Source: Bacilli bacterium (GTDB taxonomy: Bacteria; Bacillota_I; Bacilli_A; RF39; UBA660). Taken from it: a stretch of DNA of 64,000 nt. Every line of letters begins with the position of its first letter. Within the stretch, counting starts at the first letter, position 1. Below the pieces are notes generated by a model. That model made no database searches. It had not been told where the DNA came from and saw nothing but the letters and a program-made list of their open reading frames with translations. The DNA lies in NCBI GenBank assembly GCA_051893155.1, contig JBJFGY010000017.1, forward strand, positions 1,677-65,676, in the 5' to 3' direction. The position numbers were made by a program, and so were the translations under genes. Positions 1,402 through 60,720 of this stretch are shown here, in pieces.

Positions 1402-1662
1402 TTATTTAGACTCGATAATTAACTTAATTGCAGTTTTCTTTTCACCACCAATTTCTATATCAGAAAATGCTGGTATGGCTACCAAATTATCCCCCATTGG
1501 TGCAACAAAACCTCTTGCTATAGCTAAAGCTTTAATTGCTTGATTTAAACTACCAGCTCCTACAGTTTGAATTTCTAAAGTTTTTTTCTCTCTAAAAATA
1601 TTAGCGATTGCTCCAGCAACTTTACTTGGATTTGACTTTGAACCTACTTTCAATATTTCCAT
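1402..1662 (-). CDS. spoVS: stage V sporulation protein S
   Basis: 86 aa. MEILKVGSKSNPSKVAGAIANIFRE...EIQTVGAGSLNQAIKALAIARGFVAP...AIPAF is near-identical in pattern to Bacillus/Clostridium SpoVS. Confidence 0.85.
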   Translation of the reverse strand: MEILKVGSKSNPSKVAGAIANIFREKKTLEIQTVGAGSLNQAIKALAIARGFVAPMGDNLVAIPAFSDIEIGGEKKTAIKLIIESK

Positions 1663-9665: not shown

Positions 9666-10322
9666 TTATTTAATTGGAATATCTAAAATTGCGCCATCTT
9701 TTATAATACTATTACCATAAAACGAAGGTACTTTACCTTGAATTACTTTTGAACTTAATAATAAATCGTATTTTTCTTTATATTTTTCAATATTTATTGG
9801 TATTGTAATTAAATAATTTATTTCTAAATGTAAATAAATTTCTATTAAAGCATTATTTATTCCAAAATTTGTCACTTTAGTTTGAATATTTGCCACAATA
9901 GAATTAGTAAAATCATATTTTATCTTAATTTTAGGTCCCATATTTGCAAGCAATATATTATTACTACTTATAAGAATTGGAACTTCAATTATATCTTCTT
10001 TAATTATTGTTTTTTTTAAATTATTTATATAATCATTTAAAATAGTATATGACTTATTTAAATCATAATCAACATATATTATTTCATTATCATTATTTTG
10101 AACAATTTCTAAAAGATTATTAAAATTATCATTATATATAGTGTTAATATTTTTAATTATATTACTTTCAAGTTCTTCTTTTACTTTTTGATGTGTATAA
10201 CTTTCAAGTTTAGGGTTAATTTTTTTACTATAAATACTAAATAAAATAATAAATAAAAATAAGATTAAAATAAATGAAAACAATATATAATATTTTCTTT
10301 TAATCTTATCTTTTAATTTCAT
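9666..10322 (-). CDS. yunB: sporulation protein YunB-like
   Basis: N-terminal TM followed by an about 190-aa domain ending ...GINNALIEIYLHLEI...VPSFYG. The size and architecture resemble YunB. Assigned from memory of the family. Confidence 0.4.
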   Translation of the reverse strand: MKLKDKIKRKYYILFSFILILFLFIILFSIYSKKINPKLESYTHQKVKEELESNIIKNINTIYNDNFNNLLEIVQNNDNEIIYVDYDLNKSYTILNDYINNLKKTIIKEDIIEVPILISSNNILLANMGPKIKIKYDFTNSIVANIQTKVTNFGINNALIEIYLHLEINYLITIPINIEKYKEKYDLLLSSKVIQGKVPSFYGNSIIKDGAILDIPIK

Positions 10323-48827: not shown

Positions 48828-49331
48828 ATGAAAGTATTGATTAATAAACAAAATTTATGGTTTATAACTTTATTTGCACTTATTTTAATTTTAGGAATTT
48901 ATTATATTACATTACCGGATAATGCCATACCAACATTTTCGACTAATGAAACAAACTTACAAAATACAATCGAAGTTACAGATTCTGATGTAATTATAGC
49001 TCTTAAAGTTGAAGAAGAAGAAAAAATATTAAAAGAAATGGAAGAAGCACAAAAAATATTACTAGATAATGCTGCAACTACAGAAGAAAAAAATGCTGCA
49101 TATGAAACATTACAACAACTTAATTTTAAAAAAGGCAAAATAGTTGAAATAGAAAAATTAATTAAAGAAAAATTTGATGTTGATTCATGTGTTAAAATTG
49201 ATGGAAATAAAATAAATATTACGTTATCATGTGAAGATAAAGGTGCAGAATTTGCAAATAATGTTATTAAAGAAGTACAAACACTTTATAGTTCGCAAAT
49301 GTATATAACAATTAAATTTCAAAGTAAATAG
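48828..49331 (+). CDS. N-anchored sporulation-type protein (SpoIIIAH-like architecture; assignment tentative)
   Basis: 167 aa. TM, an E-rich coiled linker, and a C-terminal domain ending ...VKIDGNKINITLSCEDKGAEFANNVIKEV... Confidence 0.3.
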   Translation: MKVLINKQNLWFITLFALILILGIYYITLPDNAIPTFSTNETNLQNTIEVTDSDVIIALKVEEEEKILKEMEEAQKILLDNAATTEEKNAAYETLQQLNFKKGKIVEIEKLIKEKFDVDSCVKIDGNKINITLSCEDKGAEFANNVIKEVQTLYSSQMYITIKFQSK

Positions 49332-49372
49332 GCTTATATATTACCTTTTTTTTGTATTTTTCATAATATATT

Positions 49373-49606
49373 ATGAAGCATAAGAAAGGAAGGCCTATGA
49401 AAAAAATGTTATTAACCAAAAGAGAACAAGAAATTTTTGAACTTTTAGTTCTTAACAAATCAACTAAAGAAATAGCCGAAAAACTCAATATTAGTCAAAA
49501 AACTGTTCGAAATCATATATCTAATACAATGCAAAAATTAGGTGTTAAAGGCCGATGTAATGCGATAATAGAATTATTAAAACTTGGAGCAATTTCATTA
49601 GATTAA
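49373..49606 (+). CDS. gerE: sporulation transcription regulator GerE (LuxR-type HTH)
   Basis: LLTKREQEIFELLVLNKSTKEIAEKLNISQKTVRNHISNTMQKLGVKGRCNAIIELLKLG closely matches the GerE pattern. The real start is probably the ATG at 49397 after the aaggaagg RBS. Confidence 0.8.
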   Translation: MKHKKGRPMKKMLLTKREQEIFELLVLNKSTKEIAEKLNISQKTVRNHISNTMQKLGVKGRCNAIIELLKLGAISLD

Positions 49607-49610
49607 TAAA

Positions 49611-49636
49611 AAAGCCAATAAGGCTTTTTTTGAATA
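49611..49636 (+). terminator. rho-independent terminator after gerE
   Basis: aaaaagccaataaggcttttttt: an agcc/ggct stem plus a T run. Confidence 0.55.
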
Positions 49637-49675
49637 AAGAATAAAATATTAAATATAATTTATTAGGTGATGTAA

Positions 49676-50578
49676 ATGCTAAAAAGACGTGCTATAAAAA
49701 GAATAATTATATCTACAGGTGCACTTCTTATATTTTTTTTAATTTATTTTTTCCCAAATCAAAATAATTTTTCTATTCCAGAAGAAGTAATATATATTGA
49801 AGAATTAACTTTACCACTATATACAATAGATCAAAATAATTATGTTGCAAGAACAAATATTATAAAAAAAGAAAATGATGATATAAACTATATAATAAAT
49901 GTTTTAACAAAAGGTTCAATTAATTCAAATTATCTACCTAGTAATTTTTACTCGCCTATACCAAAAGGTACAAAGTTAATTGACTATAGCTTAAATGATG
50001 GACTTTTAAAACTTAATTTTTCAAAAGAATTATTAAATGTAACAAAATCAGATGAAGAAAAAATGCTTGAAAGTTTAATATATTCATTATGTGAACTTGA
50101 TAATGTAAATAAAATTATGATTTTTGTTGAAAATGAAAAATTAAACGAACTTCCAAATTCAAAGACTAAACTACCTACCGTTTTAGATAAAACTTACGGA
50201 ATAAATAAAGTATATGATATTAAAAATATTAAAGATACCACTAAAACAACAATATACTATTTAAGTAAATATGAAGATGATTTATATTATGTTCCAATTA
50301 CAAAAATTACTAATAATGATGAAAAAAATTATGTAGAAATAATCGTTAATGAATTAAAAACTTCTCCAATTTATGAAAGTAATTTATTAAGTTATTTAAA
50401 TGCTAGTTATGAACTTGAAAGTTATGAAATACTAGAAAATTCTATTACATTATCATTTAATAATAATTTAATTGCTTCTTTAGAAGATAAAGATTTAGTA
50501 GAAAAAGTTAAATATTCAATTTCACTTTCTTTAAGGGACACATATAATCTAGATAATATTATAATTAATGTGAATTAA
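49676..50578 (+). CDS. gerM: GerM-like germination/sporulation protein (two GerMN-type repeats), N-anchored
   Basis: 300 aa. N-terminal TM. Two repeats with ...KLNFS.../...TLSFN... modules, resembling the GerMN domain organisation. Tentative. Confidence 0.4.
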   Translation: MLKRRAIKRIIISTGALLIFFLIYFFPNQNNFSIPEEVIYIEELTLPLYTIDQNNYVARTNIIKKENDDINYIINVLTKGSINSNYLPSNFYSPIPKGTKLIDYSLNDGLLKLNFSKELLNVTKSDEEKMLESLIYSLCELDNVNKIMIFVENEKLNELPNSKTKLPTVLDKTYGINKVYDIKNIKDTTKTTIYYLSKYEDDLYYVPITKITNNDEKNYVEIIVNELKTSPIYESNLLSYLNASYELESYEILENSITLSFNNNLIASLEDKDLVEKVKYSISLSLRDTYNLDNIIINVN

Positions 50579-52102: not shown

Positions 52103-53521
52103 TTATTTTACTATATTGCCATCTAAACTAAAACTTTTAGCGTCTGTTATTTTAACAGAAACAATGTTACCTATTTCTTTTTTATCACAAGCCACATTTA
52201 CAAGTTTCATAGTTTCCGTATAACCATATAATTTTTCTTTATCTTTTTCACTTTCACCAATTAAAAGAACTTTAACTACTTTATTTAATAGTTTTTCATT
52301 ACTTTCTTTAGAATATTTGTTAACTAATTCATTTAATCTATGTAATCTATTTTCTTTTTCTTCTTGAGATACATCATCTTTCATAAATGATGAAGCAGTA
52401 CCTTTTCTTTCGGAATAAATAAATGTATATGCACCATCATATTTACAATAATTTACAATATCTAAAGTTTCTTGAAAATCTTCTTCTGTTTCGGAAGGAA
52501 AACCAACTATTATATCAGTGGTAATCGCCACGCCTGGTATTTTTTCTTTCATTTTATTAAATAATGTAATATATTCTTCTTTAGTATATCTTCGATTCAT
52601 CTTCTTTAATATTCTATTACTACCTGATTGAATAGGAAGATGAATATAAGGCATAATATTATCATACTTACTTATTACATCAATCATTTTATCAGTAAAA
52701 TCCCATGGATGAGATGTAACAAATCTAAGTCTTGGAATTCCAAGTTTTGCAACATTTTCAAGTAAAGTTGCAAAATCATAACCTAAATTTAAATCTTTTC
52801 CGTAAGCATTAACATTTTGGCCAAGTAAAGTTATTTCTTTATAACCTGAATCTACTAATGCTTTACATTCATTTAAAATACATTCCATTTTTCTACTACG
52901 TTCTCTACCTCTTGTATATGGAACAATACAATATGTACAAAATTTATCACAACCAAACATTACATTAACCCAAGCGCAAATATTTGAATCTCTTTTATAA
53001 ATTATATTTTCTGGAACAATATCGCTATTTGAATGAACTAATATATTTTGCTTATCAAGTTTTTCAATTAATAGTTTAGGTAAATCAAAAATATTATTTG
53101 GGCCAATTACAATATCAACATATTTATGATTTTTTTCAATATCTTCAACTACATCAACTTGACCAGCCATACAACCCATTAAAATAATAATTAAATCTTT
53201 TTTTTCTTTTTTTAAATGTTTACATCTACCTAAATAGCCAAACACTTTATCATGAGCATTTTCTCTTATTGCACAAGTATTTAATACTACTATATCTGCT
53301 TTTACTAATTCATCAGTTTTTGTAAATCCTAACATTTCTAAATATGAAGATATTTGCTCACTATCATGAACATTCATTTGACAACCATATGTTTTAAGAA
53401 AATATTTTTTTCCTTCATATATTTTTTTTATTTCATTATCAACATTTAAATAATTAATTTTAGTTTCAGATCTATCTTTTGCAATATCATAATTTGGTTT
53501 TAACATAAAAATCACTTCCAA
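52103..53521 (-). CDS. miaB: tRNA methylthiotransferase, MiaB family (radical SAM + TRAM)
   Basis: N-terminal MTTase domain (TYGCQMNVHDSEQ), radical SAM CDKFCTYC, C-terminal TRAM. 472 aa. Confidence 0.7.
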   Translation of the reverse strand: MEVIFMLKPNYDIAKDRSETKINYLNVDNEIKKIYEGKKYFLKTYGCQMNVHDSEQISSYLEMLGFTKTDELVKADIVVLNTCAIRENAHDKVFGYLGRCKHLKKEKKDLIIILMGCMAGQVDVVEDIEKNHKYVDIVIGPNNIFDLPKLLIEKLDKQNILVHSNSDIVPENIIYKRDSNICAWVNVMFGCDKFCTYCIVPYTRGRERSRKMECILNECKALVDSGYKEITLLGQNVNAYGKDLNLGYDFATLLENVAKLGIPRLRFVTSHPWDFTDKMIDVISKYDNIMPYIHLPIQSGSNRILKKMNRRYTKEEYITLFNKMKEKIPGVAITTDIIVGFPSETEEDFQETLDIVNYCKYDGAYTFIYSERKGTASSFMKDDVSQEEKENRLHRLNELVNKYSKESNEKLLNKVVKVLLIGESEKDKEKLYGYTETMKLVNVACDKKEIGNIVSVKITDAKSFSLDGNIVK

Positions 53522-53802
53522 CTAAATCGTATTATAGCAAAATTTATATTTAATTGAAAGGGATTTTGGATAAACTGGGATATTATTAAGAAATTCTTAA
53601 TAATTAAGAAAGTTTATAATTATAATAGGGATGCATGATATGAAATAATTTGTTACCCAAAACCCGCTTTCATTAGTAATTTACCTTATTTAGAAATATA
53701 TTTCAATACATTCGACAAAACTAGAAAAAAATAGAATTATATCGACAAAATTTATCATTTTTTTCATAAAAAAATTAATGAATTATCATTAATGAATTAT
53801 CA

Positions 53803-55089
53803 TTAATTTTTAGGAATAACTTTATCTTTTCCACCCATATAAGGTTGTAATACTTTTGGTATATTTATACTACCATCTTCATTATAATTATTTTCAACAA
53901 AAGCAATTAAAGCTCTTGGAGAAGCAAGCACAGTATTATTTAAGGTATGAACAAAATATGTACCATTTTCACCTTTGGTTCTTATACCAAGTCTTCTTGC
54001 TTGAGCATCAGATAAATTTGAACATGATCCTACTTCAAAATATTTTTTTTGTCTTGGACTCCATGCTTCAACATCACAAGATTTTACCTTAAGATCTGCT
54101 AAATCACCACTACAGCACTCAATAGTTCGTACTGGAATATCTAAATTTCTAAATAATTCAACAGTAGCTTTCCACATTTTATCATACCAATTCCATGAGT
54201 CTTCTGGTTTACATAAAACTATCATTTCCTGTTTTTCAAATTGATGAACTCTATAAACACCTTTTTCTTCAATTCCATGAGCACCACCTTCTTTTCTAAA
54301 GCATGGTGAATATGAAGTAAGAGCAATGGGAAGTTTTTTTTCATCAACTATTTGTCCTAGATATCTTCCTATCATAGAATGCTCAGAAGTACCGATTAAA
54401 TACAAATCTTCACCTTCTATTTTATACATCATAGCTTCCATTTCAGGGAAACTCATAACACCTTCCACAACAGAACTATGAATCATAAAAGGTGGAATAG
54501 TATATGTAAAACCTTTGTCAATCATAAAATCTCTAGCATAAGAAAGCATAGCACTATGAATTCTAGCAATATCACCAGTTAAATAATAAAAACCTTCTCC
54601 AGAAGTTCTTCCAGCGCTTTCCTTATCAAGTCCAGATAAACGCTCCATAATGTCAGCATGATGTGGAATTTCATAATTTGGAACTACAGGTTCTCCAAAT
54701 CTTTCTAATTCTACATTTTTACTATCATCTTTACCAATTGGAACACTTGGATCAATAATATTTGGAATTAAAAGCATCTTTTCATGGATTTCATTTTGAA
54801 GTCTTTCCTCATCAACAGTAAGGCTTGCAATTTGAGTATTAATTTCATTTACTCTTTTTTTTGCATGCTCAACTTTATCAATTTCTTTATTTCTTACATA
54901 TTCACCAATTTTTGAACTAATATTATTTTTTTCACATCTTAATTCATCAGCTTGGGATTTAATTTGACGAAATTTTTTATCTTTTTCTTCAATTTCATCA
55001 ACTAAAGAAAGTTTTTCACTTTGAAACTTCTTTTTAATATTTTCTTTTACTAATTCCTTATTTTCCCTAATTAAGTTAATGTCTATCAT
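53803..55089 (-). CDS. serS: serine--tRNA ligase
   Basis: Long N-terminal coiled coil, class II core (FRKEGGAHG... GSCSNLSDAQARRL). Start moved to MIDINLIRE after the gaaagga RBS. Confidence 0.9.
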   Translation of the reverse strand: MIDINLIRENKELVKENIKKKFQSEKLSLVDEIEEKDKKFRQIKSQADELRCEKNNISSKIGEYVRNKEIDKVEHAKKRVNEINTQIASLTVDEERLQNEIHEKMLLIPNIIDPSVPIGKDDSKNVELERFGEPVVPNYEIPHHADIMERLSGLDKESAGRTSGEGFYYLTGDIARIHSAMLSYARDFMIDKGFTYTIPPFMIHSSVVEGVMSFPEMEAMMYKIEGEDLYLIGTSEHSMIGRYLGQIVDEKKLPIALTSYSPCFRKEGGAHGIEEKGVYRVHQFEKQEMIVLCKPEDSWNWYDKMWKATVELFRNLDIPVRTIECCSGDLADLKVKSCDVEAWSPRQKKYFEVGSCSNLSDAQARRLGIRTKGENGTYFVHTLNNTVLASPRALIAFVENNYNEDGSINIPKVLQPYMGGKDKVIPKN

Positions 55090-55129
55090 TTTTATCAATC
55101 CTTTCAATAAAAAAACACCACACATTTAA

Positions 55130-55370: not shown

Positions 55371-55425
55371 GAAATTTATTTAATTTTAGATATAATATAA
55401 CTGAAACATTTGTTTGGGAGGATAT

Positions 55426-56688
55426 ATGGATAATCTATTTAAAGAAAGACATATTTTATGTATTGATTTAAAAAGTTTTTTTGCTTCATGCGAATGCGTA
55501 AAAAAAGGTGTTAATCCATTTAATTATCCCCTTGTAGTGGCAAATCCTAATCAAGGTGATGGAGCTATCACTTTAGCTGTTACACCATTTTTAAAAAAAC
55601 TTGGAGTTAAATCAAGAGGAAGAATTTTTGAAATACCTAAAAATATTAAATACGAAATAGCTATGCCACATATGAACTATTATATAAATAAAAGTAAAGA
55701 AGTCGTTTCCGTATATTTAGATTATGTTGCTAAAGAGGATATTCATATATATTCTATTGATGAATGTTTTTTAGATGTAACTTCTTATTTGAAATTATAT
55801 CAAAAAACTGATTATGAACTTGCTAAAGATATATTAAAAAAAGTTTATGATAAAACTGGTCTTACAGCTACATGTGGTATAGGTCCTAATATGTTACTTG
55901 CTAAAGTATCAATGGATATTGAAGCAAAGCATAATACTGATTGTATAAGCAAATGGACATATGATGATGTACCTAAAAAATTATGGAAAATTAGCCCTCT
56001 TAGTGATATGTGGGGTATTGGTAAAAATATGGAAAAAAGATTAAATTCTATGAATATTTTTACTATAAAAGATTTAGCTAAAACTAATCCAGGTATTTTA
56101 AAAGATAAATTTGGAATTATTGGAATTGAACTATGGAATCATGCAAATGGAATTGATAATAGTGAAATTAAAGATTTTAATAATATAACTAAAGATAAAT
56201 CATATTCTAATTCCCAAGTTTTATTCAAAGATTATAATGGAAAAAATATATTTATTATAATGAATGAAATGATTGATAATTTATGTGCAAGACTTAGAAA
56301 AAATAATAAAGAATGTTTAACTTTTGGTTTAGGAATTACATATTCCAAAAATACTCCAGGAGGTTTTTATCATAATGTAAAATTAGATAATGCCACAGAT
56401 AAAATGACTGATTTAATAAAATATGCAAGCATTATTTTTGATCGTTATTATGAAAACTTACCTATAAGAAAAGTAACTGTTTGTGCTGGAAATTTGAGAG
56501 ATAAATTAGGAACGCAATTAAATTTATTTGAAGAATATGTAGATATAAAAAAAGAAGATAATATAAATGAAGTAATTGATCAAATAAAAAAAAAGTATGG
56601 AAAAAATAGTGTTCTAAAAGCCTCAAGTTTACTTGAAGATTCAACGATAAAAGAAAGAAATAATAAAGTTGGAGGTCATAATGCATAA
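55426..56688 (+). CDS. Y-family DNA polymerase (UmuC/ImpB/YqjW-like)
   Basis: ILCIDLKSFFASCE, DECFLDVT, GIGPNMLLAKVSMD are Y-family palm/finger motifs. Start set at MDNLF after a GGGAGG RBS. Confidence 0.85.
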   Translation: MDNLFKERHILCIDLKSFFASCECVKKGVNPFNYPLVVANPNQGDGAITLAVTPFLKKLGVKSRGRIFEIPKNIKYEIAMPHMNYYINKSKEVVSVYLDYVAKEDIHIYSIDECFLDVTSYLKLYQKTDYELAKDILKKVYDKTGLTATCGIGPNMLLAKVSMDIEAKHNTDCISKWTYDDVPKKLWKISPLSDMWGIGKNMEKRLNSMNIFTIKDLAKTNPGILKDKFGIIGIELWNHANGIDNSEIKDFNNITKDKSYSNSQVLFKDYNGKNIFIIMNEMIDNLCARLRKNNKECLTFGLGITYSKNTPGGFYHNVKLDNATDKMTDLIKYASIIFDRYYENLPIRKVTVCAGNLRDKLGTQLNLFEEYVDIKKEDNINEVIDQIKKKYGKNSVLKASSLLEDSTIKERNNKVGGHNA

Positions 56689-57001
56689 TATTGAAAGAGG
56701 TATTATAAAGTGGGCTCCTTTTAATTCAGTAGTATCTGGTAATGAAATGTTAAATAGCATTATAAAAGAAAAAAATAAAATAACAATGCCTACTTTATCT
56801 GATGAACAAAAAGAAGTTATAGAAAAAAAATTAATTTTAGCCCTTTACAGTCAAAATATAGTTAATATTTATTATTTTCAAAATGGAAAAATTTTAAATA
56901 TTAAATCAAATATAAAAAAAATAGACTCTACTTATCATAAAATCTATTTTCAAAATAAAGTTATCTTATTTGAACAAATAATTGAAATTAACCAACTATA
57001 A
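56681..57001 (+). CDS. YolD-like protein (UmuD-analogue partner of Firmicute Y-family polymerases)
   Basis: About 106 aa, overlapping the polymerase stop. IKWAPFNS-type motif and conserved synteny. The family assignment is by context and memory. Confidence 0.5.
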   Translation: MHNIERGIIKWAPFNSVVSGNEMLNSIIKEKNKITMPTLSDEQKEVIEKKLILALYSQNIVNIYYFQNGKILNIKSNIKKIDSTYHKIYFQNKVILFEQIIEINQL

Positions 57002-57731
57002 AAAATCTTTTAAATAAGAAAAATAAAATTAATGCAGTTACAAGTAACACAGCCACCGTACAAATTATTTTAACATTTTTACTAATTTTTGGTTTTTGAT
57101 CTTTTGAATTTTCAGTTTTCTCACCTTCCATAATAGGTGCTGCTTCTATAACCGGTTCTGTTTGATTAATAATTGGAGTTTGCATTGGCTCAGCAGGCGT
57201 TTCAACAACCGGAGTTTGCATTGGTTCAACAGGCGCTTCAACAACTGTAGTTTGCATTGGTTCAACAGGTGCTTCAACAACTGGAGTTTGAACTGGCTCA
57301 GCAGGCGCTTCAACAACTGGAGTTTGAACTGGTTCAGCAGGTGTTTCAACAACTGGAGTTTGAACTGGCTCAACAGGTGCTTCAACAACTGGAGTTTGAA
57401 CTGGTTCAGCAGGTGTTTCAACAACTGGAGTTTGCACTGGCTCAACAGGTGCTTCAACAACTGGAGTTTGCACTGGCTCAGCAGGCGTTTCAACAACTGG
57501 AGTTTGAACTGGCTCAACAGGAGTTTCAACAACCGGAGTTTGCATTGGTTCAGCAGGAGTTTCAACAACCGGAGTTTGAACTGGCGCTATTGGTTCTTCA
57601 ATAGTTTGATTAGCTTCAGGCATTTGAGGCATCTCAATTACTGGAGTTTGCACTTCATTATTATTTTCTACTTGTTCTTCTGAACTTTCAATCTTTGGTA
57701 ACTCAATTTTTAAATCATTATTTTCTTCCAT
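56988..57731 (-). CDS. C-tail-anchored tandem-repeat protein (12-aa Q-T-P-V-V-E-T/A-P-A/V-E-P-V/M x about 13)
   Basis: Acidic N-terminus, about 13 near-perfect 12-aa repeats, a KDQKPK segment and a C-terminal TM IICTVAVLLVTALILFFLF. Confidence 0.6.
   Translation of the reverse strand: MEENNDLKIELPKIESSEEQVENNNEVQTPVIEMPQMPEANQTIEEPIAPVQTPVVETPAEPMQTPVVETPVEPVQTPVVETPAEPVQTPVVEAPVEPVQTPVVETPAEPVQTPVVEAPVEPVQTPVVETPAEPVQTPVVEAPAEPVQTPVVEAPVEPMQTTVVEAPVEPMQTPVVETPAEPMQTPIINQTEPVIEAAPIMEGEKTENSKDQKPKISKNVKIICTVAVLLVTALILFFLFKRFFIVG
57123..57590. repeat. tandem 36-bp DNA repeat array (about 13 copies) inside the repeat-protein gene
   Basis: Seen directly: the unit caacaactggagtttgaactggctcagcaggcgctt and variants. 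All six frames stay open across it, which creates the artefactual ORFs. Confidence 0.85.
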
Positions 57732-57799: not shown

Positions 57800-58150
57800 T
57801 TAATTTTTAGGTTTAAAAAATATACAAATTATAAACGCAAATACAATTGCCGCAGTTATCGCAAGAGAACTTTTACATAAAAGTCCTGAAAACAATCCTA
57901 ATATTCCTTCATTTTCAAAGCCTTCTATACCGCCTAAAAAAAGCATATTACCAAAATTCATTATTAAAATAGTAGCTCCTACTCCACATTTTTCTATTAA
58001 AGTTGGATAAACGCCTAAAAATGCAAGCAATGCTCCAATAACAGTAAATATTGAAGTAATATGTCCTGGCGTAAGTTTAGTATTATCTAGAATTATTTGA
58101 CCAATCATACAAACAAAACCCGCTAGTAAAAATGCATTTAAATATATCAT
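57800..58150 (-). CDS. spoVAE: stage V sporulation protein AE (SpoVAEB-type)
   Basis: 116 aa. AFLLAGFVCMIGQIILDNTKLTPGHITS...GVGATILI..FGN... is collinear with SpoVAEB. Confidence 0.85.
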   Translation of the reverse strand: MIYLNAFLLAGFVCMIGQIILDNTKLTPGHITSIFTVIGALLAFLGVYPTLIEKCGVGATILIMNFGNMLFLGGIEGFENEGILGLFSGLLCKSSLAITAAIVFAFIICIFFKPKN

Positions 58151-59121
58151 GATAACACCTCAATTTTTACTGCATGACTAATTGCAGGAACCGTTTGATG
58201 TTGATTAACAAGTACTGGCGTATGTAATGAACCACTTCCAACAAGTAAAATTCTTTTATATTTTTTGCTTTTTAAAATTTTTGTAAAAAATATAAGTGGT
58301 AGACAGCAAGGACCAGATCCTCCTGAATACATCTGACTATCTAAAAAAATTTCACAACCAGCATCCATAATTTTATTTAATTTTTCATGATATATTGTTT
58401 CATAATATTCCTTTAAAATATCTAATCCCACACATCCTAAATCACCTGTTAAAATCAAATCATAATCTTTCATAGTTTCATTATTATTTTTTAAGAAATT
58501 ATAAATTGTATCTGCACAAGCTGGAGCCATAATTGCACCCATGTGATTTACATCATTTATTCCTAGATTTATTACCTTACCTACTAAAGCCGAAGAAACT
58601 TTTATATTTGTTTTATCATTTGACAAAATTGCACCTGTACTTGCAGTTACTGTACATGTAGCAGTGGTAGGTTTTGGTGCACCATATTCCACCGGATAAC
58701 GATATTGTCTTTCCGCAGTTAAATTATGTGATGAAGTTAAACAAATAATATTTTTAGCATTTTTACTTTCAATTAAATTAGCACCTAAAATAATAGAAAG
58801 TGGAAAAGTTGCACAAGCTGCATAAACGCCAATAAAAGGAATATTATAATCCATCATAGTATAGTTTGAAATTGCAATTTGATTTATTAAATCCCCTGCT
58901 ATTATATAATTAATATTTTCTTGGCTTAAATTATTTTTATTAAGCAAATTGAGAATTACTAATCTTTGCATTTTAATTTCTGCAAGTTCAAAAGTTTTTT
59001 CTCCAAAATAATAATCATCAAATTTTAAATTATAATTTGTTATCTTACTATCTTTTTCTTTAGGACCAACAATAGAAAAATAATCTTTAATATAAACATT
59101 ATTAAAATTTAAATTAGCCAT
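58147..59121 (-). CDS. spoVAD: stage V sporulation protein AD
   Basis: 324 aa, thiolase/KAS-like fold (…GDLINQ…, …GCVGL…). Canonical position between spoVAC and spoVAE. Confidence 0.85.
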   Translation of the reverse strand: MANLNFNNVYIKDYFSIVGPKEKDSKITNYNLKFDDYYFGEKTFELAEIKMQRLVILNLLNKNNLSQENINYIIAGDLINQIAISNYTMMDYNIPFIGVYAACATFPLSIILGANLIESKNAKNIICLTSSHNLTAERQYRYPVEYGAPKPTTATCTVTASTGAILSNDKTNIKVSSALVGKVINLGINDVNHMGAIMAPACADTIYNFLKNNNETMKDYDLILTGDLGCVGLDILKEYYETIYHEKLNKIMDAGCEIFLDSQMYSGGSGPCCLPLIFFTKILKSKKYKRILLVGSGSLHTPVLVNQHQTVPAISHAVKIEVLS

Positions 59122-59551
59122 AGAAAACCACCTTTATAACACATAAAATAAAAGCTGATATAATTCCGTATAATAAAACTGATCCTGCAAGTTTAAAAAA
59201 ATTAGCACCAAGCCCTGTTATCATTCCATCTTTTTTATATTCCAAACCACAACTAGTTATACTATGGGCAAAACCTGTTGTAGGAACAATAAGGCCACAT
59301 TTTGTTTTAGTAACCCAATCATCAAAAAAATTAAGACCCGTAAATAAAGATGCTAAAAATATTGTAATTAAACATACAACACTATAACTTACCTTTACTG
59401 ACATGCCAAATAATATAACTAAAAGTCTAGAAATAATTTGACCAATTAATCCTAACGATCCACCAACTACAAAAGCAATAAACATATTTTTTAATTTGTT
59501 TTGTTTAGGATACTTTTTTTTAACAAGATTTTTATACTCTTCTTTATCCAA
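59114..59551 (-). CDS. spoVAC: stage V sporulation protein AC
   Basis: 145 aa. NMFIAFVVGGSLGLIGQII..., 4 TM, collinear with SpoVAC. Confidence 0.85.
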   Translation of the reverse strand: MDKEEYKNLVKKKYPKQNKLKNMFIAFVVGGSLGLIGQIISRLLVILFGMSVKVSYSVVCLITIFLASLFTGLNFFDDWVTKTKCGLIVPTTGFAHSITSCGLEYKKDGMITGLGANFFKLAGSVLLYGIISAFILCVIKVVFYG

Positions 59552-59555
59552 AATA

Positions 59556-59596
59556 AATCACCATTATTATTATTTATTTAAATGGTGATTTTATAC
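59556..59596 (-). terminator. hairpin between the sigma gene and spoVAC (terminator or attenuator separating the two operons)
   Basis: aaatcaccattattattatttatttaaatggtgattt: a 10-bp stem. Confidence 0.45.
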
Positions 59597-60247
59597 TTAT
59601 AAAGTCAAAAACTTTTGCATTTTATCTAAACCTTTTTTTTCATATCTTGAAACCATAACTTGAGTCATAGATAGTTTTCTTGCAACTTCACATTGAGTTA
59701 AATCCTCAAAATATCTTGATTTAATAATATTTCTTTCATCTTCTGAAAGCAAATCCATACTTTCATCAATTAATATTTTATCATCAATTGAAACTTTTTC
59801 TTCACTTTTTATAGTATCATATAAACTAATATTTTCATCACTATCAAGACTCATTATACTTTGTCCAGCCATAACTGCTTCATATATTTTACTTTTATCT
59901 ATTTCAAGAAAATTAGCAACATCTTCATAACTTGGAACAAAGCCATTATTTTGAGTAAGAGAAAATCTTGTTTGTTCAATTAATTTATAAAGTTTTAAAA
60001 TATCTTTATTTATTTTAAGGGGTCTATTATTAACTAATAAATACATTTCTCCATAAATATAATTGTAAGCAAAACTTGTAAATTTAGCATTAAAACTTTC
60101 ATCGTATTGTTTATATGCTTTTAAAAGTCCTAACACTCCTGCTTGAAATAAATCTTCTTTAGGATAACCATAAAATTTTTTAGCAATATCATAAATAAGC
60201 CCAGCATTTTGATTAATAATTTCTTCTTTAATCATATTAAACCTCAA
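59597..60247 (-). CDS. sigF: sporulation sigma factor, SigF/SigG/SigB-type (group 3 sigma-70), short N-terminus
   Basis: Region 2 (DLFQAGVLGLLKAYKQYD, FTSFAYNYIYGEM), region 3 and region 4 HTH (LTQCEVARKLSMTQVMVSRYEKK). At 216 aa it is about 35 aa shorter at the N-terminus than B. subtilis SigF. Confidence 0.65.
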   Translation of the reverse strand: MRFNMIKEEIINQNAGLIYDIAKKFYGYPKEDLFQAGVLGLLKAYKQYDESFNAKFTSFAYNYIYGEMYLLVNNRPLKINKDILKLYKLIEQTRFSLTQNNGFVPSYEDVANFLEIDKSKIYEAVMAGQSIMSLDSDENISLYDTIKSEEKVSIDDKILIDESMDLLSEDERNIIKSRYFEDLTQCEVARKLSMTQVMVSRYEKKGLDKMQKFLTL

Positions 60248-60569
60248 TAGTTTTTAATGCTGTAAGTTCATTATCAAGTTTCTTTATATGCAATTTATGT
60301 AATTTTTTATTTAAATCTTTATTTACTTCACATATATACATAATTCCTTTATTATTTTTTATAGCAAATTTAGTATTTAATAATGCATCTAACCCATTAT
60401 CATCAATATCCTCAAGGAAGTAGAAATTATAAACTAAATATTTTATTTTATGTTTTAATAATACAGGTACTAAATAATTATTAACTTTGTAAGAAGTAGA
60501 ACGATTTAACACTCCATCAAGTCTTACAAAAAGTATTCCTTTATCATATTCTAAATTCATTTTTAACAT
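60237..60569 (-). CDS. spoIIAA: STAS-domain anti-sigma-factor antagonist (SpoIIAA-like)
   Basis: 110 aa. GILFVRLDGVLNRSTSYKVNNYL... is STAS-like. Position immediately upstream of the sigma gene. The usual phospho-serine motif DSSGLG appears as DDNGLD. Confidence 0.55.
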   Translation of the reverse strand: MLKMNLEYDKGILFVRLDGVLNRSTSYKVNNYLVPVLLKHKIKYLVYNFYFLEDIDDNGLDALLNTKFAIKNNKGIMYICEVNKDLNKKLHKLHIKKLDNELTALKTIEV

Positions 60570-60625
60570 ATTATTTTCCTTTGCTATAAATAATATAGTT
60601 CATTTTTATTTAAGTTTAAACAACT

Positions 60626-60683
60626 TCGACAAAACATATCAAAAGTTTTAATTATTATAAATTTTTATTATTATTTTTCGACA
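60626..60683 (-). promoter_or_regulatory. two direct Spo0A-box-like motifs (TGTCGAA) upstream of the spoIIAA-sigma operon
   Basis: Minus-strand TTTTGTCGAA at 60626-60632 and 60677-60683, 51 bp apart, in the same orientation as the operon, at about -57 and -108 from the start codon. Confidence 0.45.
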
Positions 60684-60689
60684 AAATAT

Positions 60690-60720
60690 GATACATAAAA
60701 AAAGAAAGTTTAAATTACTT
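60690..60720 (-). terminator. terminator after the DUF308 gene
   Basis: aaaaaaagaaagtttaaattactttctt: a gaaagt/actttc hairpin. Confidence 0.45.

Follow-up and report, generated by a model that had tools for sequence, protein, structure and literature searches.

The partner switch formed by SpoIIAA, SpoIIAB and SpoIIE is the textbook account of how sigma-F becomes active only in the forespore, and spoIIAB is held to belong to the universal core of sporulation. In Bacillus and Clostridium, SpoIIAA and SpoIIAB are encoded with the sigma factor in the spoIIA operon (spoIIAA-spoIIAB-sigF), which in B. subtilis is itself transcribed from a sigma-H promoter. Other B. subtilis promoters, of the spoIIG/spoIIE type, are sigma-A promoters activated by Spo0A, in which the weak -35 element is overlapped or closely preceded by a 0A box. 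RsfA of Mycobacterium tuberculosis is a phosphorylation-independent anti-anti-sigma factor whose target is UsfX, an anti-sigma factor of the GHKL type, and which is probably under redox control. Surveys regard spoIIAA, spoIIAB and spoIIE as highly conserved in every sporeformer lineage, and one of them recorded spoIIAB in all 63 metagenome-assembled genomes (MAGs) that were predicted to sporulate. Here we describe a locus on the minus strand of a 64-kb stretch of DNA (the window; 23.4% G+C) from a Bacilli bacterium (RF39; UBA660; assembly GCA_051893155.1, contig JBJFGY010000017.1), in which a STAS gene and a gene for a sigma-F-like factor stand next to each other upstream of spoVA genes. Our reading, which we hold with a probability of roughly three in four, is that the locus represents a variant of the spoIIA operon that does without the kinase and is independent of phosphorylation, and that this variant is common to a large set of gut Bacilli, uncultured and with reduced genomes, among them the order RF39.

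With the spoIIA operon the locus shares its adjacency to spoVA, a first gene of SpoIIAA fold (template modelling score, TM, of 0.91 to 1THN_B), a sigma-F-like last gene, predicted 0A boxes upstream and tight gene coupling. It differs in that spoIIAB is missing, that the phosphorylated serine is replaced and its position free to vary, that the sigma factor is about 30 N-terminal residues shorter, that the promoter looks sigma-A-type and not sigma-H-type as judged from its sequence, and that the STAS gene is dispensable in several lineages; for SpoIIE, moreover, the literature reports reduced presence or absence in RF39. The likeness to RsfA lies in a STAS protein working without a phosphorylatable serine, with the difference that RsfA has UsfX as its GHKL-type partner, whereas the STAS protein described here has no known anti-sigma partner. 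The features of the locus are as follows.

60677–60683, minus strand: predicted distal 0A box TGTCGAA, starting 114 nt and ending 107 nt before the STAS ATG, 52 bp upstream of the proximal box
60636–60644, minus strand: upstream element TTTTGATAT (family consensus TTTTGaCAt), from an anchored alignment of 65 distinct upstream regions
60625–60631, minus strand: predicted proximal 0A box TGTCGAA, starting 62 nt and ending 55 nt before the STAS ATG, its end 27 nt upstream of the -10 element
60592–60620, minus strand: predicted sigma-A-type core promoter TTTAAA-17-TATATT (family consensus TGTTTAAA ... CTATATT), conserved across the family
60237–60569, minus strand: STAS gene, 110 aa, SpoIIAA orthologue by fold and position, with Asp57 in place of the phosphorylated serine (Pfam, NCBIfam, alignment, structure)
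59597–60235, minus strand: gene for a sigma-F-like group-3 sigma factor, 212 aa, lacking about 30 N-terminal residues of canonical sigma-F (Pfam, NCBIfam, PDB match)
59568–59596, minus strand: putative forespore-type promoter (sigma-F/sigma-G consensus) GTATA-N17-AATAATA, right after the sigma stop and before spoVAC
59555–59591, minus strand: hairpin AAAUCACCAUU / AAUGGUGAUUU, followed by a U-rich stretch; 11-bp stem, -15 kcal/mol, z = -3.1
59114–59551, minus strand: spoVAC, 145 aa, TTG start (Pfam/NCBIfam)
58147–59121, minus strand: spoVAD, 324 aa (Pfam/NCBIfam)
57800–58150, minus strand: spoVAE or SpoVAEB-type gene, 116 aa (Pfam/NCBIfam)

A preliminary description of this DNA had placed a STAS gene of 110 aa, a sigma gene, a hairpin and spoVAC-spoVAD-spoVAE on the minus strand in this order, as in the spoIIA/spoVA neighbourhood of sporeformers; we see the same STAS length, and the same order both in the window and across the family. 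It had also given the sigma factor 216 aa and an 11-nt overlap with the STAS gene, which is an artefact of an upstream TTG start. The true start is the ATG at 60235, one nucleotide after the STAS stop (TAA-T-ATG), and the sigma homologues, of 212 to 217 aa and mostly 212, all align from the MIKEE/MxxE start that corresponds to this ATG. Its statement that no other open reading frame (ORF) lies between the two genes is borne out at the level of 30 aa or more in the window's ORF list.

No gene for a GHKL kinase was found between the STAS and sigma genes or anywhere else in the 64-kb window, and none of the related loci has a kinase gene between the two; here the preliminary description, which had reported the lack of a spoIIAB/rsbW-type gene and called for a comparison with related loci, proved right. 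A phmmer search with filters off, covering 2,419 ORFs of at least 50 aa from the window and the first 83 loci (1.23 Mb), gave no SpoIIAB- or RsbW-like ORF better than E = 0.5. As a positive control, the B. subtilis SpoIIAA query matched the window's STAS protein at 7.6e-7 and found 75 STAS ORFs in total, compared with one ORF only at E < 0.01 for the RsbV query. The reference sequences used for SpoIIAB, RsbW, SpoIIAA, RsbV and SigF were entered by hand. In its main text, the gene census of RF39, RFN20 and ML615J-28 by Field, Bowerman and Hugenholtz (2024; PMC10868615) gives 'reduced presence or complete absence' for spoIIAB and spoIIE in RF39; one supplementary file of that census holds no entries for spoIIAA, spoIIAB or sigF.

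The position of the phosphorylated serine was located by two routes. In phmmer alignments to PDB sequences, the STAS protein aligns without gaps to SpoIIAA (1TH8_B, 1AUZ), with DIDDNGLDALL opposite FMDSSGLGVIL, and an independent MAFFT alignment gives the same pairing. We take the phosphorylated residue to be the one directly after the conserved Asp, that is, Ser58 of SpoIIAA and Ser56 of RsbV as counted on the hand-entered sequences; this numbering agrees with the FMDASGLG of the mutant chain in 1TID/1TIL. The window has Asp57 at this position, followed by Asn58 (DDNGLD for DSSGLG), so that the loss of the phosphorylated serine proposed earlier is confirmed by both alignments. Closer relatives most often have Glu here (56 of 77 aligned sequences, a set that includes two Bacillus references), Asp in five, and a mixture in the rest. 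Over up to 138 sequences (the window together with the representatives), the information content is 0.74 bits at position 57 and 0.62 bits at position 58, which are among the least conserved, compared with 3.85 bits for Asp56 and 3.82 bits for Gly59 in the nearly invariant flanks. Residues found at 57 and 58 include Glu, Ser, Lys, Ile, Leu, Asn, Tyr, Arg, Phe and Met. In the solved SpoIIAA-SpoIIAB complexes (1TH8/1THN) the serine sits at the centre of the interface, beside the nucleotide. Free variation at such a site argues against phosphorylation and also against canonical docking onto a SpoIIAB-like partner.

The fold itself is well supported. An AlphaFold2 model of the STAS protein built from 51 family members has a predicted local distance difference test score (pLDDT) of 94.8 and a predicted TM-score (pTM) of 0.87, with helix 2 beginning at residue 57, and a Foldseek comparison with SpoIIAA from SpoIIAA-SpoIIAB complexes (1THN_B, 1TH8_B) gives TM 0.91, a root-mean-square deviation of 1.7 Å and 28% identity. 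The Pfam STAS domain is matched at E = 2.9e-9, and among NCBIfam models SpoIIAA (TIGR02886) scores highest, with 33.8 bits where the cutoff is 114.75. By its modelled fold and its position, the STAS protein is a SpoIIAA orthologue, but one that has no phosphorylatable serine.

The preliminary description had left two options, a partner-switch module rewired to work without phosphorylation or a kinase encoded elsewhere, and the first is now the better supported, given the variable phospho-site, the lack of a kinase ORF in 1.23 Mb and the census. For the canonical switch to persist, a SpoIIAB-like kinase would have to be encoded elsewhere in the genome, with the STAS protein acting as an antagonist that cannot be phosphorylated and is always active, or being phosphorylated at another residue. 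This could be accommodated by the 64 kb of genome in view, by the few family members that retain Ser or Thr at the site (one of them within a canonical DSSGL), and by the wording of the census line, which is not strictly 'absent' (PMC10868615). We nevertheless consider it improbable. A position at the centre of the interface that accepts Lys, Tyr, Ile, Leu, Arg and Phe fits poorly with SpoIIAB-like docking, and the searched loci, which have varied gene neighbourhoods, contained no such ORF. The survey data on spoIIAB given above also count against it, and no sporeformer is known to carry spoIIAB anywhere but in the spoIIA operon. In addition, the census line covers the phosphatase SpoIIE as well as the kinase (PMC10868615).

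The kinase-free two-gene layout is not peculiar to the window genome but common to a large family. More than 1,000 sigma homologues were found at E ≤ 1e-10, in MAGs of uncultured gut bacteria, those with names carrying the label Bacilli or Firmicutes. Scanning a single genome for each species gave 80 loci, with labels such as 'Mycoplasma sp. CAG:472', 'uncultured Tenericutes', 'uncultured Bacilli' and 'Candidatus Coprovivens' (locus L064); the last is assigned to family CAG-1000 of the GTDB order RF39 (PMC8035907), and literature searches gave no GTDB placement for 'CAG-472'. The relatives are thus uncultured gut Bacilli, one named member being in order RF39, and not low-GC Clostridia as had been supposed. 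In the 83 loci, which come from relatives with 43–93% sigma identity, the sigma gene has an abutting STAS gene of about 110 aa in 74 cases and stands alone in nine. When all 88 related places examined are counted, 79 have the STAS gene directly followed by the sigma gene and nine have the sigma gene alone behind the same promoter. The synteny with spoVAC-spoVAD-spoVAE is kept in most loci that reach that far. A search of 1.84 billion cluster representatives gave 231 STAS relatives at E ≤ 0.001, and for each of three distant ones that were looked up (31%, 32% and 45% identity) the STAS gene is directly followed by a sigma gene with no kinase gene between; the only one of these contigs that is long enough also has spoVAC-spoVAD-spoVAE downstream. 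Among the proteins matched by the STAS query is one of 923 aa (P0312), which aligns in ten separate stretches to query residues 38–74 and looks like a repeated STAS-like segment.

In a neighbour-joining tree built from the sigma proteins, the loci without STAS are scattered over at least four distinct positions, which indicates repeated, independent and clean deletions of the STAS gene. Since several lineages have lost it in this way and kept the promoter and sigma gene, the STAS protein is best regarded as an accessory part. Such losses might also be expected if the locus were a decaying relic, in which sporulation is being lost from a genome-reduced lineage and the STAS gene is a leftover with no regulatory role. 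Four relatives with an early in-frame TGA in the sigma gene (described below) are in line with this, as is a prediction tool that scores RF39 MAGs as non-sporulating; the census describes reduced RF39 genomes and repeated loss of sporulation in related orders (PMC10868615). We think it unlikely that the module as a whole is a relic, because the STAS gene is intact, at about 110 aa, in the 75 STAS loci surveyed, and its product is as conserved as its neighbours: mean identity to the window copy is 60% for STAS, 55% for sigma and 58–62% for the SpoVA proteins. Pairwise ratios of non-synonymous to synonymous substitution rates (dN/dS) for STAS are mostly 0.04–0.18, similar to those for sigma and SpoVAD. 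By these measures the STAS gene is under strong purifying selection and not decaying, which suggests that its product is still functional. The confidently modelled fold, the promoter, 0A box and forespore promoter kept down to single bases, and several further intact sporulation genes in the window also speak against a relic.

Upstream of the operon, the two direct TGTCGAA motifs reported in the preliminary description are both present. In the window alone TGTCGAA is not significantly enriched (three hits against 1.6 expected), and the significance of the 0A box comes from its positional conservation across loci. An exact box in the same orientation starts 53–74 nt (mostly 58–65 nt) before the STAS ATG in 70 of 75 STAS loci, and the remaining five have a one-mismatch box, TGTCGGA or TGTCGAT, in the same place. 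In the STAS-less loci an exact box precedes the sigma gene in nine of nine cases, giving 79 of 84 overall, against a background of 0.14 per kb on both strands. A second box near -114 is common to the sub-clade of the window (L004, L008 and L010–L014). Control of the operon by Spo0A, as first suggested, is therefore strongly supported by the positionally conserved, predicted 0A box.

The operon promoter that carries the 0A box reads TTTGTCGAA, and the consensus of the 65 distinct upstream regions is TTTTGaCAt.tTTTGTCGAA..TGTTTAAA, then about 17 nt, then CTATATT. We read this as a weak sigma-A-type promoter with the 0A box just upstream of the -35 element. The arrangement resembles the spoIIG/spoIIE-type promoters in having a 0A box beside a weak -35, with the window's second box about five helical turns further upstream; a difference is that here it is deduced from sequence conservation. 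By analogy with spoIIG-type promoters, activation by Spo0A~P may be inferred. The TTTTGaCAt element just upstream of the proximal box has a one-mismatch 0A box (TGTCAAA) as its reverse complement, so that the promoter may hold an inverted pair of predicted Spo0A sites. The only other exact TGTCGAA in the window is at 53711–53717 (minus strand), in the gap between a 440-aa ORF (53803–55125) and a 472-aa ORF (52103–53521), about 190 nt upstream of the latter.

The sigma factor has all three of the Pfam Sigma70 regions r2, r3 and r4. Among NCBIfam models it scores 140 bits for the SigB/F/G subfamily, then 131.2 for SigF, 105 and 95 for SigG and 84.7 for SigB, all below the curated cutoffs; SigF (TIGR02885, cutoff 321.45) is still the best equivalog. 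Of the PDB entries, it matches sigma-F of G. stearothermophilus best (1L0O_C, E = 3.5e-28), and as this alignment begins at sigma-F residue 30, the protein is short by about 30 residues at its N-terminus, in agreement with the shortening first noted. By both the NCBIfam ranking and the PDB match the factor is sigma-F-like, where a SigB- or SigH-like factor had been considered. That the locus might have nothing to do with sporulation, and instead encode an alternative sigma factor for general stress (SigB-type) or some other role together with an orphan STAS protein, would suit the family scores below equivalog cutoffs and the NCBI names, which are only 'sigma-70 family' and 'STAS domain-containing'. 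We regard this as very unlikely in view of the score order SigF > SigG > SigB, a nearest solved relative that is sigma-F, top STAS matches that are SpoIIAA, the conserved 0A box, and synteny with spoVAC-spoVAD-spoVAE behind a forespore-type promoter. Of the RsbV-RsbW-SigB stress module, no RsbW-like ORF is seen in the searched loci and the SigB equivalog scores 84.7 bits. The succession of conserved 0A box, sigma-F-like factor and forespore promoter fits a sporulation module and not a SigB-type stress module.

Four relatives from rabbit gut have a conserved in-frame TGA near sigma codon 15 (..KMI*KIASHFYG..) with the rest of the gene intact. It aligns with Tyr15 of the window's sigma factor and with a Trp of canonical sigma-F. 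The genes concerned are:

L025, 10001–10639: sigma gene with in-frame TGA
L026, 658–1311: sigma gene with in-frame TGA
L030, 8721–9350: sigma gene with in-frame TGA
L049, 3526–4155: sigma gene with in-frame TGA

Genetic code 4 was rejected for these four loci, in which TGG is used normally and spoVAC, spoVAD and spoVAE have no in-frame TGA. The codon could be a shared early nonsense mutation, or else a site of programmed read-through by which sigma synthesis is held down. Three of the four also have TGA as the STAS stop, in frame with the sigma gene; a natural STAS-sigma fusion as a sign of direct binding was dismissed, since this is not a fusion without recoding and the chance of being in frame is one in three. 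A 278-aa protein (P0108) that had been considered as a STAS-sigma fusion is a sigma factor with an unrelated tail.

The sigma stop is immediately followed, in 54 of 55 distinct loci, by the pattern G[TC]ATA-N17/18-[C/A]ATAATA and then by the ribosome-binding site of spoVAC; this pattern matches the forespore sigma-F/sigma-G consensus of B. subtilis. The window has AATAATA and not CATAATA as its -10 element, and within the window alone the pattern is not significant (two hits against 1.3 expected). The hairpin between sigma and spoVAC, already proposed in the preliminary description, is real. Its 5' arm lies within the spacer of the putative forespore promoter, and its 3' arm holds the Shine-Dalgarno sequence of spoVAC (GGUGA). 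It is strong in the window's sub-clade and in some other lineages. Family-wide conservation was rejected, as the hairpins are no better than those of spacers swapped between loci (p = 0.22), and the hairpin is lineage-specific. In early read-through transcripts it would probably mask the spoVAC ribosome-binding site, or terminate transcription, and so block spoVA expression; transcripts from the forespore promoter would be translated because they lack the 5' arm. An Rfam scan of the window gave tRNAs only, with no known RNA family at the locus.

Since the SpoIIAB kinase and its target serine appear to be lost, the textbook forespore switch could not work here as it does in Bacillus. We propose instead that Spo0A~P would turn the operon on from the sigma-A-type promoter, as at spoIIG of B. 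subtilis, and that sigma-F activity would therefore be governed mainly by its synthesis, the ATP-driven phosphorylation cycle of SpoIIAA, SpoIIAB and SpoIIE not operating. The STAS protein would have to act by non-covalent binding, through a surface other than the canonical kinase-docking one, and its partner could be sigma-F itself or some non-GHKL protein. A more specific version, in which the SpoIIAA-derived STAS protein has swapped partners and binds the sigma-F-like factor or RNA polymerase directly, as a two-protein control free of ATP and phosphorylation, is one we advance only tentatively and think rather doubtful. If it were true, compartment-specific expression would be possible without the SpoIIAB/SpoIIE switch that is regarded as universal. 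A comparison of sigma positions kept in the presence of STAS but changed in the STAS-less lineages yielded one weak position (194) and no support for an interface.

Several points weigh against a kinase-free, phosphorylation-independent operon. The SpoIIAB and RsbW queries were among the sequences entered by hand, and the census was made by KEGG orthology, which can miss divergent genes (PMC10868615). With 64 kb of the genome seen, an unlinked kinase or a non-homologous anti-sigma factor could lie elsewhere. Ser is kept at the phospho-site in 17 of 136 representatives, including the one with DSSGL, and some members have Thr; a kinase of another type might in principle phosphorylate these. The sigma factor has no positions that are specifically relaxed in STAS-less lineages. 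Repeated STAS loss and the in-frame TGA of four relatives could mean that the module is decaying in part of the group. Finally, literature searches brought up no experimental evidence of RF39 spores; no member of the group is in culture, and none has been seen to form spores.

What was already known is the reduced presence or absence of spoIIAB and spoIIE in RF39, from one line of a census. This census is a presence/absence table whose text does not mention spoIIAA or sigF, and it does not analyse the locus, its phospho-site and promoters or the repeated STAS loss (PMC10868615). The searchable literature does not describe the architecture of the locus, the retention of a SpoIIAA orthologue that cannot be phosphorylated, the lack of constraint on the phospho-site, the promoters of the Spo0A-box and forespore types or the repeated STAS loss. 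The group, a widespread one, keeps the Spo0A box, sigma-F, forespore promoter and spoVA conserved base for base, and has dropped the kinase, the phospho-site and, per the literature, the phosphatase. Spore formation by these bacteria would make them a natural experiment in minimal regulation of the first cell-fate decision, or a pointer to an as yet unseen substitute; if they form no spores, the conserved module must have another purpose. Prediction tools that require spoIIAB will score these organisms as non-sporulating by construction.

Further sporulation genes in the window encode SpoVS, YunB, a SpoIIIAH-like protein, GerE and GerM (with two Germane domains), which indicates that the organism retains much more of the sporulation programme than the spoIIA/spoVA locus.

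1402–1662, minus strand: SpoVS
9666–10322, minus strand: YunB
48828–50578, plus strand: cluster of SpoIIIAH-like, GerE and GerM

Directly 3' of spoVAE is a gene for a 247-aa protein (56988–57731, minus strand) that consists mostly of about 12 tandem repeats of the PVQTPVVE(T/A)PAE type, with a hydrophobic C-terminal segment and no Pfam match. Several related loci likewise have a low-complexity, apparently membrane-anchored ORF after spoVAE. The spoVA genes are also adjoined, at 55414–57001 on the plus strand, by a 424-aa ORF resembling Y-family DNA polymerases and a YolD-like gene (Pfam YolD). The counterpart of the polymerase-like ORF in L001 has Pfam IMS domains, and since the pair also flanks the operon in L001 and L002, this neighbourhood is partly conserved.

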